A DNA stretch of 43,329 bases from positions 1-43,329 of the IMG/VR virus record IMGVR_UViG_3300037307_000335; one strand, given 5' to 3'. Shown here piece after piece: positions 5,147 through 40,332 of the stretch. The notes under the pieces are model-generated. The model was not told where the DNA came from, searched no databases, and saw nothing but the letters and a program-made list of their open reading frames with translations. Both the position numbers and the translations under genes were made by a program. The DNA is from a virus. Taxonomy: Duplodnaviria; Caudoviricetes. How positions within the stretch are numbered: the stretch's first letter is position 1; every line of letters starts with the position of its first letter.

Positions 5147-7027
5147 ATGAGAAGAAATAGAGAAGTAGAAAAAAGAGCAGAAGGAATACAAAGTTTTTTC
5201 AACAAAATTAATATAACTAAGATAACTGATCTTGCTTCTCATGTAATGACCTATAATAAAGATTACGAGAAAGATCTTTATCAAGCCTTTGGTGCCTATA
5301 GAACTTCTTTCGATTCATATACTGTTTTAGATCAACAAAGAATTATGCGATACAGAGAATACGAACAGATGTGTTATGTTCCTGAGCTTAATGGTGGTCT
5401 AGAAATATACGCAGACGATGCAACACTATACAATACAGACGATAGAGTAATTTCAGTAGAAGCAGACAACAATGATTTACAAGAAGCCATAGAAAATCTA
5501 TTTTTTAAATCATTAGATATGAATTATACACTATGGCATATTGTTTTTAACACATGCAAATATGGTGATTCATTTTATGAAATAATACCCGACAATTACA
5601 AAAATCCAAAAAGAATAAAATATATAAAATTTATACCACCAAGATTCGTTTACAGAATAGAAAAAGATGATAACTTAATAGAATTTATTGCTAGAATACC
5701 TCCATCAAGAATGGATAGTCCTACACAAATGCAACAAGATGCTGAAGAGATACATCTTAAACCCTGGCAAATAGTACACTTCAAATTAGACGATAAAGAA
5801 TTTGAACCTTACGGGAAATCAGTATTAGAAACTGGTAGATTAGCTTTCAAACAAATGAAACTAATTGAAGATGCTATGTTAATATATAGAATATCAAGAG
5901 CACCTGAAAGAAGAGTGTTTGGAATACCGGTAGGGACACTTCAATATAGGGAAGCTATGGCAAGAGTTGAAGACGTCAAACAAAGATATAGAAAAACGCC
6001 ATGGATAGATCCAGTAAGTGGGGAAATAAATTATAAAGCAAATCCATTATCCATAAATGATGATTATTTTGTCCCAAAAAGACCAGATGGAACAGGTATC
6101 ACAATAGACACTTTACCAGGTGGACAACAATTAGGCGAAATAGACGATGCAAGATTCTTTAAAGAAAAGATTTTGAGAACTATGAGAATCCCAAGTGCTT
6201 ATCTAACTGGGGAAATGACTGGTGATGTTGCAAAAACATCATTATCATCTATGGATGTTAGATTTGCTAAATCAATAGAAAGAATACAAAAAATGGTAGT
6301 CAAAGGCTTAGAAAAATTAGCCATAATAGAATTATCATTTAAAAGATTTTCTATTGAAGATATGTACAATTTTCAAATAAGACTGACAAAACCATCTAAG
6401 ATTTATGAGATGCAAGAGTTAGAAACTTTTAATTCTACTTTACAATCAATACAAACAGCACTTTCTCTTGCAGATCCTAATGGTAAATTGTATTTACCAA
6501 AAGAATGGTTATATAAGAATATAAATAGATTCAATGATGAACAGATATCAACAATAAGAATGATGCAACAATCAGAATTGATGCAACAATCGGACGACAA
6601 AAAGGCAATGGAAGCTTCAGAAGCTCAACCAACAGAAGCCGGTGGTGGTTTACCAACTGGAGTATCAGGTGGAGCTGAAATGCCGGGGGCTGAAGGAGGA
6701 GCAACTCCTGGTCCAGAAACTGGAACTGAAGCAGGTGGAGCTGCACCACCTGAAGGTGAACTTGGAACAGAAACAACAGGTGGTGGTGAAGCTGGAATGG
6801 AAGTTGCAAGTAAAATAATTCAAGTAGCTGGAAAAGAATTTTTAATTGAGAACGAAACAGACATTAAAGAATTGATAAATTTTGTGAAAAGGTCGAAAGA
6901 AATCAAAGAAACAAAGAAAGATAAACTTAAGCCCAAATTGTATGAAAACAACTTTAACAACTTATTTATTAGAGGCGAACTCAAAGGGATTATAAGAAGA
7001 AACAAAGCAGAATTCCTAAAAGATTAA
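5147..7027 (+). CDS. gp20: Portal protein (T4 gp20-like)
   Basis: LIEDAMLIYRISRAPERRVF, DDYFVPKR, IDTLPGGQQLGEIDD motifs; Gly/Glu/Ala/Pro-rich C-terminal tail. Confidence 0.95.
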   Translation: MRRNREVEKRAEGIQSFFNKINITKITDLASHVMTYNKDYEKDLYQAFGAYRTSFDSYTVLDQQRIMRYREYEQMCYVPELNGGLEIYADDATLYNTDDRVISVEADNNDLQEAIENLFFKSLDMNYTLWHIVFNTCKYGDSFYEIIPDNYKNPKRIKYIKFIPPRFVYRIEKDDNLIEFIARIPPSRMDSPTQMQQDAEEIHLKPWQIVHFKLDDKEFEPYGKSVLETGRLAFKQMKLIEDAMLIYRISRAPERRVFGIPVGTLQYREAMARVEDVKQRYRKTPWIDPVSGEINYKANPLSINDDYFVPKRPDGTGITIDTLPGGQQLGEIDDARFFKEKILRTMRIPSAYLTGEMTGDVAKTSLSSMDVRFAKSIERIQKMVVKGLEKLAIIELSFKRFSIEDMYNFQIRLTKPSKIYEMQELETFNSTLQSIQTALSLADPNGKLYLPKEWLYKNINRFNDEQISTIRMMQQSELMQQSDDKKAMEASEAQPTEAGGGLPTGVSGGAEMPGAEGGATPGPETGTEAGGAAPPEGELGTETTGGGEAGMEVASKIIQVAGKEFLIENETDIKELINFVKRSKEIKETKKDKLKPKLYENNFNNLFIRGELKGIIRRNKAEFLKD

Positions 7028-10404: not shown

Positions 10405-12030
10405 ATGCTTTTTGATTATAACAGGCTTCGCAAAGAACAAAAAGACAAAATCCTCACAAAGTGGGGTCCTTTCTTAAAAGGTATCGAGAGCCCGATACTA
10501 AGAGAAAGCACAGCAATGCTTCTTGAAAATGAAGCACAATATTTATTAGAAGAACCAGCTACTCAGGCAGCTGATGTGGTTGGTATCCAGAAAATCCTTC
10601 TACCTATCGTTCGAAGAGTGTTCCCAAATTTGATAGCTAATAACATCGTATCAGTTCAGCCATTAGCTGGACCTACTGGAGTTATTTTCTATTTAAAATA
10701 TAAATTTGGATCAACAAAATCTGAAACTCTTGCTGGATCAGAATATTCTATGTATTCAGATCAACCTTCAGATGTTAGCCAGGGATATAACCCTTACTAC
10801 TCGACTGACGAAGTAAGAGAAACAACAGTTACTTTCACCGATGGTGGTGGAGCTGCAGTATCAACATTTGATATCGTTTCTGATGCAAATTACAGAGATG
10901 GTTTAGATTTAGGTGCTGACTCAACAGACGCTACTAACGGACTGTTAAAAAGAGTCTCTTTAAGATTCAAAGCAGCTGTTACAGCTACTCCAGCTAACTA
11001 CTCAGTATGGGTTGTTAGATATAATGGAAACCTGGGACAATGGGTTGCAAAAGAAATCGACAGAGGCGGAACTGGTGTTGTATTAGCAAGCAATGCTTCA
11101 GACGATACAGCATTCAAAGGTATTACTGTTGGGACAGATTGGGATTCTTCAACTGGTGCATTACCGAAAGGTCAAGCACAATGGGTACATGCAACAAAGA
11201 AAGTTGTATTCTCCCCATTCGTTGGAGTTAACACAGATAATGGTGCTAATATCACAATTACTGGAATTGAAATGCTCTATACCTACAAACAAGAAGGAAC
11301 AGAACATATTCCAGAAATGGCTATTAGTATTTCTCAGTATCCTATTACTGTTAAATCCAGAAAATTAAAAGCAACATGGACAAATGAAGCTGAACAAGAC
11401 TTAAAAGCTTATCATGGCTTAAACGCTGATGCAGAGCTTACAGCTCTTGTTTCAAACGAAATGATCGCTGAAATCGACAGGGAGATTGTAGGAAAATGCT
11501 TAGAAGTAGCACCTATTTCTTCTTATAGATACATCGATTGGAATTCTGATGTTGCCAATAACACTTCTGGAAACTATCTCGATAGACACAGAAATCTGGT
11601 TCAAACTATTACAGAGCTCAGCAATGAAATTTATAGAAAGAGCAAGATTGGTCCTGCAAACTGGATAGTAACTTCTCCAAAAGTAGCATCATATCTTGAA
11701 ACTCTCGAAGGTTTTATCGCAGCTCCTGCAGCAATTCAGGGCGGATTAGGAATTGTTAAAGCTGGAACTTACAGAGGAAACTTTACAGTATACAAAGATC
11801 CTTTATTCCCAGCAAACAAGATCTTATGTGGACATAAATCACCTGCTTCACCTTTCGGTGCTGGCGTTGTATATGCTCCTTACGTAACACAGATCACTCC
11901 TACTCTTTATGGTCCAAACGACTTCACACCAAGAAAAGGTTTCATCGCAAGATACGGCTTAATTGACGTACCACTTGGAAACTTACTATATGGTATGATT
12001 TCAATTGCAGATCTTCCAGGTTCAGTGTAA
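10405..12030 (+). CDS. gp23: Major capsid protein (T4 gp23-like)
   Basis: VRRVFPNLIANNIVSVQPLAGPTG, SRKLKATWTNEAEQDLKAYHG, EIDREI, VYAPY, FTPRKGFIARYG motifs. Confidence 0.97.
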   Translation: MLFDYNRLRKEQKDKILTKWGPFLKGIESPILRESTAMLLENEAQYLLEEPATQAADVVGIQKILLPIVRRVFPNLIANNIVSVQPLAGPTGVIFYLKYKFGSTKSETLAGSEYSMYSDQPSDVSQGYNPYYSTDEVRETTVTFTDGGGAAVSTFDIVSDANYRDGLDLGADSTDATNGLLKRVSLRFKAAVTATPANYSVWVVRYNGNLGQWVAKEIDRGGTGVVLASNASDDTAFKGITVGTDWDSSTGALPKGQAQWVHATKKVVFSPFVGVNTDNGANITITGIEMLYTYKQEGTEHIPEMAISISQYPITVKSRKLKATWTNEAEQDLKAYHGLNADAELTALVSNEMIAEIDREIVGKCLEVAPISSYRYIDWNSDVANNTSGNYLDRHRNLVQTITELSNEIYRKSKIGPANWIVTSPKVASYLETLEGFIAAPAAIQGGLGIVKAGTYRGNFTVYKDPLFPANKILCGHKSPASPFGAGVVYAPYVTQITPTLYGPNDFTPRKGFIARYGLIDVPLGNLLYGMISIADLPGSV

Positions 12031-12057
12031 TAGCTGATTTATTAAGAATTATTAACG

Positions 12058-12084
12058 AGGCCAATCTTCGGATTGGCCTTTTTT
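12058..12084 (+). terminator. Rho-independent terminator after capsid gene
   Basis: AGGCCAATC-TTCG-GATTGGCCT plus T run. Confidence 0.9.
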
Positions 12085-12939: not shown

Positions 12940-12967
12940 AGGCCAATCTTTAAGATTGGCCTTTTTT
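12940..12967 (+). terminator. Rho-independent terminator
   Basis: AGGCCAATCT...AGATTGGCCT plus T run; same stem as the terminator at 12058. Confidence 0.85.
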
Positions 12968-12989
12968 GTGCGTCTGCATATTTAATTAA

Positions 12990-13706
12990 ATGGAACGTCC
13001 TTTAAATAAAAAATCTTATGGAAGTATAGCACATTTACCAGAAAGCAAATTGGGGGAAAATGATAAAGTTTGTCCAGAAGGCCAAATTTTAATAGCAACT
13101 AAAAGACCAAGAGATTGGAAAGATCTAATAATAGTCCAAGAAAAACTCGATGGATCAAATATGTCGGTTGCAAAAATAAATGGAATTATAACTCCACTAA
13201 CTAGAACTGGTTATAGAGCGATAGAAAGTGTATTTAAACACCACAAATTATTTCATAATTGGGTTTTTAAAAATCAATCTAGATTCGACTCTCTATTAAA
13301 AGAAGGGGAAAGAATTTGTGGTGAATGGATATTACAAGTTCATGGTACTCATTATAAACTAGAACATGAACCATTTGTGGCATTTGATTTAATGGTTGGA
13401 ACTGATAGATTGATTTATCACGAATTCTTACTTAGAGTATTAAGATATGACTTTGTAATACCAAAGCTAGTCCACATGGGTCAACCAATAGATGTAAAGA
13501 ATGTAATGAAGATTTTAAATAAGTCTGGTCATGGAGCTATAGAAGGACCAGAAGGAGCTGTCTGGAGAATAGAAAGAGAAGGACAAGTTGACTTCTTAGT
13601 CAAGTATGTAAGATCAGACAAAGTAGATGGAAAATATCTTAATCAAGATTTATTCAATGAAGGCTGGGAAAGATACTTAAATGATGAGCAAGAAAGAGAG
13701 AGCTAA
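12990..13706 (+). CDS. RNA ligase-family nucleotidyltransferase
   Basis: Motif I QEKLDGSN, III ICGEW, IIIa FVAFD, IV EGAVWR, V LVKYV. Confidence 0.85.
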   Translation: MERPLNKKSYGSIAHLPESKLGENDKVCPEGQILIATKRPRDWKDLIIVQEKLDGSNMSVAKINGIITPLTRTGYRAIESVFKHHKLFHNWVFKNQSRFDSLLKEGERICGEWILQVHGTHYKLEHEPFVAFDLMVGTDRLIYHEFLLRVLRYDFVIPKLVHMGQPIDVKNVMKILNKSGHGAIEGPEGAVWRIEREGQVDFLVKYVRSDKVDGKYLNQDLFNEGWERYLNDEQERES

Positions 13707-14001
13707 AAGATTATTACAAAATAAACTTTGTATAAATTGTAATTTTAAAAATACATGTGAAAAGAAATCGAGAAAATATTTGACATGTGCTAAGTGGGAA
13801 AAAGAATCAACTCATATTGGTAGTTTATTAAATGTTGTTAAGCAAATGTACCCAAGTGTTATAAATGAAAATTTTTTCAAAAATGGCTCAATGGAAAATA
13901 TATTCAATAACTCATTTTATTCTAATTTCGCTAAAATGTTGGGTATCCCAAAGGATTACTTATTTGGAAACGAAGAAAAAAATAAAAAACCTACTAAATA
14001 A
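13681..14001 (+). CDS. Small Cys4 protein with capsid-like and portal-like peptide segments
   Basis: LLQNKLCINC...C...TC domain, followed by LLNVVKQMYPSVINEN and MLGIPKDYLFG. Confidence 0.6.
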   Translation: MMSKKERAKRLLQNKLCINCNFKNTCEKKSRKYLTCAKWEKESTHIGSLLNVVKQMYPSVINENFFKNGSMENIFNNSFYSNFAKMLGIPKDYLFGNEEKNKKPTK

Positions 14002-14149
14002 TAAAATTTGCAACTTGTGCTATAAGTACTCTATTTGTGAAAATAAAAAAGAATTGACATGTGACGATTTTAAAACAGCAAGCGAATCATATATTGTTTA
14101 TAGTCCTTATATCCATTTTTATATCCCTGTAATAGTATGTAATTCTTAA
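13964..14149 (+). CDS. Small Cys4 protein, paralog of 13681 ORF
   Basis: Likely TTG start at 13964 after AAGGA; LLNNKICNLC...C...TC domain, then IVYSPYI. Confidence 0.55.
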   Translation: METKKKIKNLLNNKICNLCYKYSICENKKELTCDDFKTASESYIVYSPYIHFYIPVIVCNS

Positions 14150-15474: not shown

Positions 15475-16203
15475 ATGGACAAAACTAAAACAACTGAAAG
15501 CCCTAAGAAACCAGATTATGTCCTTAAAGGGCATAAAAACAAAATCGAGGTAAGCCTTCGAGATCAGAAGCATAAAGAAGGAGATAAATATCTGCTAGAA
15601 AAAGCAGAATATTATTCTACTCCTTTTTCATGCGACCATTGCGGCCACAGTCCAGCACTATTCAGGTTGATCATAAAAGATCTAGGAAACAACAAAAAAA
15701 TAGCTGTCGGAAGTGAATGTATCAAAAGCTTTTCTAAAGAAGGTATTGACGCAAAGGAAGCTGTTAAACGCAAGAAGATCTTGAAAAGGCAAATGCGAAA
15801 AGCTCGAAAGGTTGCTAAAGAAGCACTCAAAACTGGCCTCTATGATTCTTTCCTGAAGGAAGAGAAATCAGATATAATCATCAGATTATCGTCTGATATC
15901 ATCAACGGAACATTCAAAAAAGAAGAATGGCCAATTGATAACTCTCTGACTAAAGAGGATGTTTGGGGAAAGCTTGGAATAACTGAATCTCCAAAACACA
16001 TCCCAACTAAGAAAGAACTGAAGGCTGAAAACAAACAGAAAGATACTGAAAAGCCAAAGAAAGCACCAGCTAAACCAAAAAACGAGGTAAAGAAAGAAGT
16101 CGATGTTGAAGTGAAAGATACCAAAGAAACCGAGGGAAGTTCACTCAATTTAACACTCGACGATATCGACGACGACTCTTTACTAGCTGTACATCACAGC
16201 TAA
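15475..16203 (+). CDS. Zinc-finger-like protein (CxxCxH...VGSEC), paralog 1
   Basis: FSCDHCGHSP...KKIAVGSECI; Lys-rich then acidic tail; SD AGGAGG. Confidence 0.7.
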   Translation: MDKTKTTESPKKPDYVLKGHKNKIEVSLRDQKHKEGDKYLLEKAEYYSTPFSCDHCGHSPALFRLIIKDLGNNKKIAVGSECIKSFSKEGIDAKEAVKRKKILKRQMRKARKVAKEALKTGLYDSFLKEEKSDIIIRLSSDIINGTFKKEEWPIDNSLTKEDVWGKLGITESPKHIPTKKELKAENKQKDTEKPKKAPAKPKNEVKKEVDVEVKDTKETEGSSLNLTLDDIDDDSLLAVHHS

Positions 16204-16300: not shown

Positions 16301-16813
16301 ATGAAGACCACAAATACAACAAGGAAACCGAGAAACAATGGAGAATATATCTCCAAAGCTTTTCAGGACAGAATTGAGGTTAGCTTGGCTAACATCAGTA
16401 GGAGTAAGGATGATGAATATTCACTAATTCATGTTTTTTATTCATACAACTATTTCTCATGTGAGCTTTGTAACCACAATCCTTGCTCCTATGCCTACGT
16501 TATACAAAATAACAAAACTAACAAAAAAATGAAAGTTGGCAGCGAATGCATCCATCATTTCGATGGTAAGGGAATAAACATAGACTTAGCAGAAGGTCTC
16601 AGAAAAAGAGTCAAAGGTATAACAAGAAAAGAAAGAAGATTCTTAAAAAAGAATATGATCGAAGCAGAATACAAATCAATGACTAAAGAAGAAAAGAGAC
16701 AGATGACTATTTCCCTTTTTCTTAAAAGACAAACAAAAGAATTACTCGAAGGAAAATTTCAAGGTAAAACTATTCTATCAAAAGATGATGTTAAGAAGAT
16801 TTTAGACTACTGA
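16301..16813 (+). CDS. Zinc-finger-like protein, paralog 2
   Basis: IEVSL...FSCELCNHNP...KKMKVGSECI; SD AGGAGG. Confidence 0.7.
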   Translation: MKTTNTTRKPRNNGEYISKAFQDRIEVSLANISRSKDDEYSLIHVFYSYNYFSCELCNHNPCSYAYVIQNNKTNKKMKVGSECIHHFDGKGINIDLAEGLRKRVKGITRKERRFLKKNMIEAEYKSMTKEEKRQMTISLFLKRQTKELLEGKFQGKTILSKDDVKKILDY

Positions 16814-17776
16814 TTCTTCTTCAATAATATTCTTCAATACCATGAAGAGTTCAAGGTTAAGCTTATTATTCTTGGACTCTTCATGTATTATTTTTAAAGC
16901 TTCAGACGGCAACATTTTCATCCTATAAGATCTATTACTTGTTAGGGCGTCGTACACATCAGCTATAGAAACTATTTGTGCATTTATTGGTATTTGATCG
17001 TCTTTAGCCCCACAGGGATAACCAGATCCATCTAATCTTTCATGATGATATAAAACGACATCTAAGCAACTTCTGAGTTTCTCTAAATCTATACAGATGT
17101 TGTATCCTTTTTCAGGATGGGACATTATTTGTTTGAATTCTTCACTGTTCTTATCAAATCTTTTTTCGGATCTCAACACATTATCTTCTATTGCTATTTT
17201 ACCAATATCGTGCAACAAAGCTCCTGTATAAAGTCTTTCTCTTTGATGTTTATCTTTTAAACCATACTTATCAAAAATCTCAAGACTTAATCTAGCAACT
17301 CTTTCAGAATGACCTTCTGTATAGATATCTCTTGCTTCGAGTGCTCTACATAAAGCTAATATAACATGACCAGAATGTTCAAGCTCTTCGTAAGCCTCCG
17401 ACAAAGTAACTAAATTATTTGCAGTCATCAACAATTCAGTTTCTCTAAAAGGAAAATTAAGAATTGTATTAGCACCGGCAACTAGAGATTTCATTTTTAT
17501 TTCGTCTTTAGAAGAAGAGATAACTATTATAGGAATATTTGGGAATTTATCTTTTATGTATTCTACAACTTCTAGACCTTTACTGTCATCTATTTCGTAA
17601 TCAGTTATCAATAGATCTATAGTACCATTGTTGTCGATCAATTTTTTTGAATCTTCTACGCTCTTAGTGAATTCACATTCTATATCTTTTATTTTTAAGA
17701 TACTAACAACATCATCAATTAAAGATTGATTATTAGAAACAAGTAAAGCTTTGTAATTTTTTTTGAACGATTCCAT
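16802..17776 (-). CDS. Response regulator receiver plus HD-GYP cyclic dinucleotide phosphodiesterase
   Basis: REC-like DLLITD...PIIVIS; HSERVA, LLHDIGK, HPEKG, HHERLDGSGYP, ADVYDALTSNRSYR. Start reassigned to ATG 17776 because the longer ORF runs through a terminator. Confidence 0.92.
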   Translation of the reverse strand: MESFKKNYKALLVSNNQSLIDDVVSILKIKDIECEFTKSVEDSKKLIDNNGTIDLLITDYEIDDSKGLEVVEYIKDKFPNIPIIVISSSKDEIKMKSLVAGANTILNFPFRETELLMTANNLVTLSEAYEELEHSGHVILALCRALEARDIYTEGHSERVARLSLEIFDKYGLKDKHQRERLYTGALLHDIGKIAIEDNVLRSEKRFDKNSEEFKQIMSHPEKGYNICIDLEKLRSCLDVVLYHHERLDGSGYPCGAKDDQIPINAQIVSIADVYDALTSNRSYRMKMLPSEALKIIHEESKNNKLNLELFMVLKNIIEEESVV

Positions 17777-17795
17777 AATATTATCTTTTGCGAAC

Positions 17796-17827
17796 AAAAA
17801 AAAAGAGCCAGTAATTTTTCTGGCTCT
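17796..17827 (-). terminator. Rho-independent terminator (minus strand)
   Basis: AGAGCCAG/CTGGCTCT stem followed by a T run on the minus strand, just past the 17835 stop. Confidence 0.85.
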
Positions 17828-17834
17828 ATCTGAA

Positions 17835-18329
17835 CTAATCGTCCTTTCTTTCTTTTGGCTTGATTCTTTCAAATTGACCTAGATCTTTAAATATAAATTC
17901 TATTTCACCTTTTTTTACTTTTTGTTTTATTTCAGATGTAAGCTCTAAATCAATCATTGCTTTTTCTGTATTTTCTGCAATTACTTTTTTCTCCAAAATT
18001 ATTTCACATTCTTTCTTGTCTACAACGACTACCTCAAATACTTTCATTATGTCCTCCTTGATAGTATTTTTGTTAAGATGTTTTTCAATCATCTCATTTA
18101 ATTTTTCAAAGTTTATATCTTCTTTAACAATTGGATAACTAACATTCCACGGTTGATGTATGATTGGCTGAACAACTGGTTGAATAGTTGGACCGTATGG
18201 TTGATCCCATCTAGGAATTGGATCTCCTATATAAATGCTTGGGTCTCTCCATATTCCAGTGTTTCCACCTGTTGATGAAGATCCCGTCGTTACTGTATTT
18301 GTAGTTACATTTAAAATAACTTCAGACAT
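17835..18329 (-). CDS. Hypothetical protein with low-complexity N-terminus and internal in-frame start
   Basis: ATG 18329 with GAGG; second ATG at 18047 preceded by AAGGAGG. Confidence 0.6.
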   Translation of the reverse strand: MSEVILNVTTNTVTTGSSSTGGNTGIWRDPSIYIGDPIPRWDQPYGPTIQPVVQPIIHQPWNVSYPIVKEDINFEKLNEMIEKHLNKNTIKEDIMKVFEVVVVDKKECEIILEKKVIAENTEKAMIDLELTSEIKQKVKKGEIEFIFKDLGQFERIKPKERKDD

Positions 18330-21277: not shown

Positions 21278-21717
21278 TGAATGCACATAAAAAAATTATT
21301 GAAACGATACTACAATGGGGGCCTCCAAAAAATTTAGCAGGAAAAGGACTAACTTATTTAGAAATAGATTATGGAGAGAGCAATAGATATTTAGCCCAAA
21401 TAGTATTCAATAAAAATTCTATATTAGGTATTTTTCAAGAAGCAATAGAATACTCAGAAAATATTTGGGGAGGAAGAGTCTTAGATTTAAATCTAAGTAA
21501 TCTTGGGTATTACAGATTTTTTACTGAAGATGGTAAAAAAATAAAAGGAAATTGGAAAGAATGGCAAAACGAAAGAGTTGAGATAGAGTCACAAGTTGAA
21601 AAGTATGGAAAAGAACTTTTAGTAGTAAAAAATATAGATAATGATAAATGGTATGTTATTACAAGAGAAGGTAAAGTAGTTGATGCTAATCAATTTTATG
21701 AGAATGGAATTATTTAA
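21277..21717 (+). CDS. Hypothetical protein
   Basis: TAATG coupling at both ends. Confidence 0.6.
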   Translation: MNAHKKIIETILQWGPPKNLAGKGLTYLEIDYGESNRYLAQIVFNKNSILGIFQEAIEYSENIWGGRVLDLNLSNLGYYRFFTEDGKKIKGNWKEWQNERVEIESQVEKYGKELLVVKNIDNDKWYVITREGKVVDANQFYENGII

Positions 21718-21985
21718 TGAAAGCTAAAGTAGGTGATTATTTCATATATAGAATCTCGGGTCATTATTTTGTATTAGAAGCTGTAAAATTAAATGAAAGA
21801 TATAGGGGACCATTAAAGGTGTCGATTGGCCAGAAAGCATAGACTATAAAATTATTTTTACTAATCATAAAAATTATGCAAATAAAAAAGAAATATCTTT
21901 TGCGGAAGCTTTATATATGTTTCCTACAACTAAAAAAGAATGGAAATACGACTTGGTAAAATTAGTTCTCAAGAACAATGAATAA
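21717..21985 (+). pseudogene. Frameshifted tandem paralog of the 21997 ORF
   Basis: MKAKVGDYFIY...YR, then TIKGVDWPESIDYKIIFTN...TTKKEWKYDLVKLVLKNNE in another frame; break at the G4 run in TATAGGGGACC (~21802-21812). Confidence 0.75.
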
Positions 21986-21996
21986 GGGGTTATTTA

Positions 21997-22257
21997 ATGA
22001 AAGTAGGTGATTATTTTATATATATGACTTTTGGTAGAAGTTATTATTCTGTATTAGAAGTTTCTAAATTAAACGAGGGATATAGGACTACTGATGGAGT
22101 TGATTGGCCAACAAGCACAGATTATAAAATTATTTTTACCAATTATCCAAGACTTGAAAATAAAAAAGAAGTATCTTTAACTAATGCAGTTGATACAATA
22201 CCGACAACTAAAAAAGAATGGAAATACGATTTAGTAAAATTAATTTTTAAAAATTGA
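21997..22257 (+). CDS. Small hypothetical protein (intact paralog)
   Basis: SD AAGGGG; aligns with 21717-21985. Confidence 0.7.
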   Translation: MKVGDYFIYMTFGRSYYSVLEVSKLNEGYRTTDGVDWPTSTDYKIIFTNYPRLENKKEVSLTNAVDTIPTTKKEWKYDLVKLIFKN

Positions 22258-29417: not shown

Positions 29418-29440
29418 ATTGCGTTGCATATATAAACTAT

Positions 29441-40059: not shown

Positions 40060-40332
40060 ATGATTAGTAAAACAATTTTTAGAAATTTGTTGAAGGGTAA
40101 AATTTGTAACAATTGTTTAATTAACCCATCTACCATGTTTATTCTAGATCCAATAGATTATACAATATTTATCAAATGCGAAAAGAGAAATCAAGAAAGA
40201 TATAATACATGTAAAAATTTTTCTTCTTCCAACTCTAGATTCGAAAGGGATCTTGTTAGATATTTGAAATTTAAAATGATGTTAATTTCAGATAAAAAAT
40301 ACGATGAGAGAGAAGAAAGAAATGAAATTTAA
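40060..40332 (+). CDS. Small Cys4 protein, third member of the 13681/13964 family
   Basis: NLLKGKICNNC...CEK...NTCKNF. Confidence 0.55.
   Translation: MISKTIFRNLLKGKICNNCLINPSTMFILDPIDYTIFIKCEKRNQERYNTCKNFSSSNSRFERDLVRYLKFKMMLISDKKYDEREERNEI

Follow-up and report, generated by a model that had tools for sequence, protein, structure and literature searches.

Why would a T4-like phage encode small four-cysteine (Cys4) proteins whose tails resemble pieces of its own major capsid protein? The question is raised by a 43.3-kb viral contig, the whole of record G000 and here called the window, in which a first-pass annotation had read two tandem Cys4 proteins as a modular scaffold for epitopes of the phage's capsid and portal. 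The contig carries terminase, portal, prohead protease, capsid gp23, neck, sheath and replication genes. The region is present in two public sequencing runs, both freshwater metagenomes, one of which may be its source; no RNA dataset is listed as containing it. Among the matches listed, the best cultured or annotated capsids are 26-41% identical to the window capsid, and no cultured relative exceeds 41%.

The Cys4 genes of the window

The two tandem paralogs, ORFs A and B (Table 1), are present in the sequence where they had been reported, together with the three alignments to capsid and portal. ORF C had been missed; capsid and portal are not among the top matches of its tail among the window proteins. 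The ORF A protein is recorded in one contig only. ORF B starts at a TTG with AGGA 8 nt upstream. We discounted an extended N-terminus for B starting at 13865: it has no ribosome-binding site, and the codon score there favours the frame of A. No variant fusing A and B by frameshift was seen in the two runs, one of which covers the junction. An XRE-type helix reading of the C-terminus of A gave no library match and was set aside.

ORF A is likely leaderless. The AAGATA element ends 5 nt before its start, as at four other starts without a Shine-Dalgarno sequence, and 13 of 56 starts, those of portal, neck and tube among them, have it within 40 nt (random mean 3.8). Sites lie before 18746, 23409, 32941, 33425, 36266, 5147, 22819 and 27523, at 5-6 nt from starts without a Shine-Dalgarno sequence and further upstream of structural genes. 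Judged by this placement, the element looks promoter-like and is a candidate phage promoter giving leaderless mRNAs. Terminator-like hairpins end the capsid and Fn3 genes, and two near-identical ones (12057-12080 and 12940-12962) flank the Fn3 gene; the hairpin ahead of the RNA ligase gene would separate the A/B unit from the capsid transcript. A GCGT..TGCATAT element lies at 12970-12981 and 29421-29431, directly behind terminators and ahead of the RNA ligase gene and an Mre11-like gene, respectively. In ten related contigs, as read from printouts, a similar GCATA element precedes the first array gene.

Table 1. Features of the window that bear on the Cys4 proteins and their capsid-like tails.
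Feature	Position	Strand	Remarks
T4-like portal	5147..7027	+	motif named in the first-pass annotation at 6167-6214
Major capsid gp23	10405..12030	+	source segments Gol 10594-10680, helix 11356-11487, YAPY 11866-11886
Terminator-like hairpin, then GCATAT element	12940-12962; 12970-12981	+
RNA ligase gene	12990..13706	+	between terminator and ORF A
AAGATA element	13670..13675	+	5 nt before the start of A; promoter-like (inferred)
ORF A	13681..14001	+	106 aa; Cys4 domain and 66-aa tail; no Shine-Dalgarno sequence
Cys4 domain of A	13687..13800	+	basic helix K-x-LL, then C-x2-C, C, C-x2-W
Gol copy in A, first half only (capsid 65-81)	13825..13875	+	eroded in-register extension to 13929
Portal look-alike in A	13924..13971	+	contains the ribosome-binding site of ORF B, AGGA 13952-13955
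ORF B	13964..14149	+	61 aa from TTG; Cys4 domain 13967-14074 and 24-aa tail
YAPY-strand copy in B (capsid 488-494)	14093..14113	+	7-mer shared with homolog P0120
ORF C, third Cys4 paralog	40060..40332	+	between primase and helicase

Several further features of this genome and its relatives were observed. The large terminase gene (366-2807) contains an intein with a LAGLIDADG domain. In eight relatives (L001, L002, L004, L005, L007, L009, L013 and L014) the portal genes either have frames well beyond 626 aa or give matches split in two, which suggests inteins or other insertions. The capsid frame of L009 (10001-11906) breaks off within Gol, past the FPNL motif, and picks up again some 250 nt on, a possible intron. 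In the window, tandem paralogs at 15475-16203 and 16301-16813 carry a C-x2-C-x-H ... GSEC motif, resemble PHROG 2319 and are kept in L003 and L005. The minus strand at 16802-17872, amid the structural region, encodes a putative response regulator with an HD-GYP-like domain, named from its motifs. An unannotated stretch ahead of the gene at 21997 (21717-22257) is similar to that gene and is likely its tandem paralog, the ATG overlapping the preceding stop.

Capsid segments in an unnamed phage family

ORFs A, B and C belong to an unnamed four-cysteine family. A domain-only profile (28 seeds, 48 positions, with the four Cys invariant in 28/28 seeds) found 200 cluster representatives at E <= 0.001, 150 of which were listed. 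Word-based searches retrieved far fewer homologs: one protein each from ORF A and an L005 protein, and seven from a 75-row alignment. Searches over the full length of five records gave 5-20 matches on each contig, most of them in arrays. Relatives whose capsids are 65-73% identical to the window capsid carry tandem arrays behind the capsid gene (four members in L005 and ten in L010). Tails are shorter than 12 residues in 44 of the 150 listed representatives and at least 30 residues long in 62. A pattern scan of contigs gave 24 matches; the six of these that the domain profile caught have no complete in-frame four-Cys domain, and we read them as chance rather than as members.

No Pfam or NCBIfam name is common to more than one of 75 members, except Gp23 on the tails, and PDB sequences match the Cys4 domain only at E >= 0.07. 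The nearest named cluster in the ESM Atlas is DUF6472, at 0.79, with none higher; the Atlas has no usable match for homolog P0016, and its models have pLDDT below 0.5. The conserved cysteines suggest that the domain is likely to bind metal. DUF6472 and HiPIP-like small Cys4 domains share the spacing C-x2-C ... C ... C-x2-aromatic with the family, yet Pfam matches to either are absent among the 75 members. One of two DUF6472 proteins reaches E = 0.049 on the family profile, which is a lead only. No HiPIP protein was found in five genomes searched.

Taken alone, the in-window capsid matches of A and B are weak. Against 50 window proteins, the tail of A scores 37 on its own capsid (shuffle P ~0.03), 38 on a portal site other than the one first reported, and 40 on the unrelated UvsX. 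The best match of the B tail is the capsid, at 34 (shuffle P ~0.02). The shuffle P values of the in-window look-alikes span 0.02-0.06, and PHROG and Pfam return no capsid match for A or B.

The tails of homologs give a clearer picture. We compared 135 segments lying outside the domain, of which 116 homologs supplied 133 and the window the other two, the tails of A and B; tails shorter than 12 residues and N-terminal extensions shorter than 15 were left out. With clade HMMs, 8/135 segments score 6 bits or better on capsid; the corresponding counts are 0.0 for shuffles, 0 for reversed segments and 0-1 for ten control genes. With clade position matrices at p <= 0.01, the capsid is matched by 17/135, portal by 1 and other controls by 0-5. 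Diverse matrices, built from 15 capsids and 18 portals, yield 24/135 for capsid at the same threshold versus 4 for portal, 3 for protease and 3 for terminase. Capsid matches are enriched above shuffled sequences and control genes; portal gives counts like those of protease and terminase.

These 24 capsid segments comprise 22 from 21 homologs (5 of them seed proteins or near copies, 16 not) and 2 from the window, in A and B. They map to only three places on the capsid: residues 56-104 (n = 17), 339-371 (n = 5) and 488-502 (n = 2). Library searches agree: 6/150 representatives match PHROG major head and none portal, 6/75 members match Pfam Gp23, and Gol-region matches of homologs reach E = 3e-6 on PHROG 138. 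P0016 matches 1017 phage records, once each, and the annotated ones among the 30 listed are major capsid genes. Another member, at L172 16852-17187, has a 44-residue piece matching capsid 318-361, presumably the spine helix, and exceeds the Pfam Gp23 cut-off. Two partly overlapping sets of extra locus-derived segments hold a capsid piece in 0/31 and 1/37 cases. Roughly 1 in 7 family members has a conserved T4-type capsid piece; a capsid segment at p <= 0.01 is missing from 129/150 representatives. The capsid-derived tails are 7-45 residues on proteins of 60-190 aa, not full major capsid proteins.

The first of these segments had been equated with the T4 Gol peptide, and the alignment agrees: residues 58-114 of the window capsid pair with residues 23-77 of mature T4 gp23*, which correspond to gp23 88-142 because 65 residues are cleaved. 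We take the Gol limits in gp23 to be 94-122. Gol is described as 29 residues in the first quarter of gp23, its most conserved region (PMC3014915).

The arrangement of pieces on the scaffold varies. Gol-like halves lie on both sides of the Cys4 domain in P0026, P0053, P0058 and L003 12538-12885. They also flank it in L008 7613-8056; in this protein, as in P0053, P0058 and the L003 one, it is as if the domain had been inserted into the peptide. A domain tree of 153 rows and 47 columns, built by quick search, is mostly unresolved; in it, clustering exceeds that of shuffled labels for the Gol and split forms but not for the helix forms. Close domains carry different pieces, Gol in P0004 and helix in P0009 and P0025 (SH support 90). 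The same helix segment also occurs on another scaffold: a 74-aa protein of G013 (L181 1456-1680; G013:C1 ~82030-82260) has no Cys4 domain, and its C-terminal half matches that segment (Pfam Gp23, E = 1.8e-4). In a single case, P0136, the C-terminal tail carries the prohead-protease Ser motif at 7/9 identity. At family level, the capsid part of the proposed scaffold-plus-epitope architecture holds, with three gp23 segments above shuffles and controls and different segments on close domains; the portal part does not.

Because homolog tails support them, the capsid matches of A and B are upheld. On a profile of 11 homolog tails, A scores 7.0 bits (5/5000 shuffles) and is among seven non-members above the gap. 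It aligns end to end with the Gol-tailed P0035 (E = 2e-10); in fixed register the tail scores 45, versus -55 for shuffles (0/20000), with no gaps. The spacing from the last Cys to the Gol Pro is 22 residues in A and in five other homologs. The resemblance of A to Gol is confined to the first half: capsid 65-81 scores, while capsid 82-99 gives -2. The YAPY-strand resemblance of B is likewise borne out, with p = 0.0007 on the diverse capsid profile and its seven residues identical in the unrelated homolog P0120 (3/20000 shuffles). Both are eroded representatives of an expanded family of phage proteins.

The portal epitope in A fares differently. The reported match scores 24 (5/16 identical) and is not the best portal match of A, whose best site on the clade profile has p = 0.23. 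On the diverse portal profile the reported site has p = 0.017, and on the diverse portal HMM A ranks first of the 135 segments with 2.0 bits, the runner-up having 1.4; some distant portals carry a motif closer to the stretch in A. E-values of the portal and YAPY sub-profiles are optimistic because these motifs were chosen after the first-pass annotation had named them. No homolog segment matches the portal site at p <= 0.02 among the 135 segments and the locus-derived sets, and the P0035 stretch aligned to it scores -9. The Lys-Asp codons of the look-alike double as the ribosome-binding site for translation of ORF B, and the same stretch finds a 9/14 match in human topoisomerase II. A portal epitope as a family feature was rejected, since homologs and control comparisons do not support it. 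From these comparisons the look-alike in A is probably a coincidence, and we think it improbable that it is genuine. P0136 may keep the wider head-protein idea alive.

The tails had been described as look-alikes of the phage's own capsid; they are not recent copies of it. Codon identity at identical residues in seven pairs of tail and own capsid is 29/68, versus 28.4 expected, and the best tails keep 14/34 and 18/36 residues of their own capsid. At position 80, 9/11 tails have D/E, as do 8/10 distant capsids, whereas 21/21 clade capsids have N; at position 75, 9/11 tails and A have Ser/Thr, and all clade capsids have Asn. Conservation in tails and in capsids is weakly correlated (rho 0.34, p = 0.052). 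Because synonymous sites are randomised while residues persist, the capsid pieces look old and selected. We infer from these sequences that the tails form an old module with its own consensus, maintained at the protein level.

What the tails may do

We tentatively favour, at somewhat less than even confidence, the reading that capsid-piece tails act as bait for host factors recognising short motifs of the capsid. A small, likely metal-binding four-cysteine domain would carry swappable tails. Recombination would have fused capsid pieces to this domain more than once, and selection would have retained the motif core. The folded domain would stabilise an otherwise floppy peptide, which could then fill the motif-binding site of an EF-Tu/Lit-type or other short-motif sensor without firing it, so that the real capsid would be made unnoticed. 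The non-activating forms would be truncated, split or substituted versions such as A. The portal look-alike would stand outside this system. In favour of bait, the same three conserved capsid segments recur, and Gol is the region that binds EF-Tu (PMC3014915).

The main difficulty of the bait reading is that Gol activates Lit. The free Gol peptide is reported to activate Lit rather than block it, and the 29-residue region is sufficient for Gol function in Lit activation (PMC3014915); a faithful Gol copy should therefore trigger, not block. In addition, neither the helix nor the YAPY segment is known to be a sensor epitope. The Cys4 domain also appears to have a job of its own, because 129/150 representatives have no capsid segment at p <= 0.01 and 44 tails are shorter than 12 residues. 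The weak correlation between tail and capsid conservation and the scarcity of capsid pieces in the extra locus-derived sets count against bait as well.

Which sensors could be baited also matters. Short motifs are what Lit and CapRel are said to recognise; Avs7, 8 and 10 instead close around the A-domain in its folded state and recognise it by shape (10.64898/2026.01.04.697583). These Avs proteins have in common with the proposed targets that capsid is the sensed pattern, with EF-Tu involved in Avs7 (10.64898/2026.01.04.697583), but peptides of 7-45 residues are unlikely to compete with a folded domain. Titration of Avs sensors is thus unlikely.

A wider version is a diversifying epitope-display library, in which one metal-binding scaffold, amplified up to 20-fold, would bear conserved head-protein motifs grafted as decoys against motif-reading immunity: the three capsid segments and possibly also the prohead-protease active-site loop and a portal motif. 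We regard it as doubtful. If true, the tails would map the virion motifs that hosts watch, including sensors of the helix and YAPY strand that are as yet unknown.

The strongest rival is head-assembly modulation, which we nevertheless judge rather unlikely. Here the tails would imitate capsid contacts. Their targets would be the phage's own scaffold, portal, chaperonin or unfolded capsid, and the outcome either a tuned head size or entry of the domain into the prohead. By the alignment offset, the piece in A maps to T4 gp23 95-111. Residues 66-105 of gp23 are disordered in the prohead, face inward and probably bind scaffold; they include Met98, which anchors the portal, and the sites of the length mutants A94V and G97S (PMC9546572; for disorder, scaffold contact and length mutants also PMC9958956). 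This is the part that A keeps, and by analogy with T4 such an inward, scaffold-facing position would favour an assembly role for the piece in A. Furthermore, the arrays lie directly behind the capsid gene in the clade, A shares its AAGATA element with portal, neck and tube, and all three segments derive from one protein. However, the tails differ systematically from their own capsid at positions 75 and 80, and the arrays start behind a terminator with a different element, GCATA, found in the window before the RNA ligase and Mre11-like genes. Copy number and tails also vary widely among relatives, unlike core morphogenesis genes.

Bait is also weighed against decay. Captured capsid DNA might be eroding neutrally in a recombination-prone array, with the Cys4 domain alone at work and only conserved motifs still recognisable. 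The majority of members without capsid tails, the lost Gol core score of A and the spectrum from intact to eroded tails fit such relics, and captures from variable regions of foreign capsids would go unseen. Yet residue identity reaches 50% with randomised synonymous sites, and the same core is kept in 11 tails from clusters less than 50% alike. Moreover, within the clade the conservation of capsid 300-540 roughly equals that of Gol, and still the matches fall on three segments. We consider neutral relics quite unlikely.

Less likely still are weapons against co-infecting T4-like phages, in which pan-T4 consensus pieces would poison a competitor's head assembly, the phage's own capsid having drifted away. 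The tails carry the acidic residue of distant capsids rather than the clade N80, and P0120 has Pro after its YAPY-like motif, as in distant capsids, where the clade has Thr. The tails are otherwise near the clade capsid (14/34 and 18/36 identical), and the acidic residue may be ancestral. Finally, that the A and B matches are chance although some homologs have real capsid tails is highly improbable and already largely refuted: raw scores below that of UvsX and the absence of PHROG and Pfam capsid matches are outweighed by the gapless colinearity of A with P0035, the 22-residue spacing common to five other homologs and the 7-mer common to B and P0120.

Known systems and meaning

The nearest precedent is the T4 system of Gol, EF-Tu and the e14 protease Lit (PMC3014915). 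The family carries the same segment, with 17 segments on capsid 56-104. In T4, Gol is part of the capsid and a trigger, whereas the family has it apart from the capsid, as the tail of an independent small protein and in many cases truncated, split around the domain or substituted. A second parallel is DSAD1, a phage inhibitor of DSR2 that competes for the sensor's trigger site (PMC11087589). A phage protein competing with a structural trigger is the working principle proposed for the tails. In the text available, however, DSAD1 is not described as a copy of the trigger, and one protein faces one sensor (PMC11087589); the Cys4 family instead bears sequence copies of capsid motifs on a multi-copy scaffold. 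PHROG 12830 spans 128 positions and bears the label major head protein. Its C-terminal third matches Gol as well as five Cys4 homologs, on which the matches lie mainly in the tails.

Capsid-motif tails were not found described in the literature searched, which covered few subscription papers, nor in passages of a 2026 review (PMC13728456) or the papers cited above. The capsid-tailed Cys4 architecture is real and apparently undescribed. Its novelty stems from an architecture without a named family, not from function.

If the tails are bait, they would represent a general counter-defence design, a decoy made by copying the trigger. The copied segments would then point to capsid epitopes sensed by bacteria, and each tail could serve as a pull-down probe. 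They would also make testable the suggested importance of the Gol-EF-Tu contact across T4-like phages (PMC3014915). If they are instead assembly modulators, they would be peptides that naturally inhibit or tune the formation of T4-type heads.
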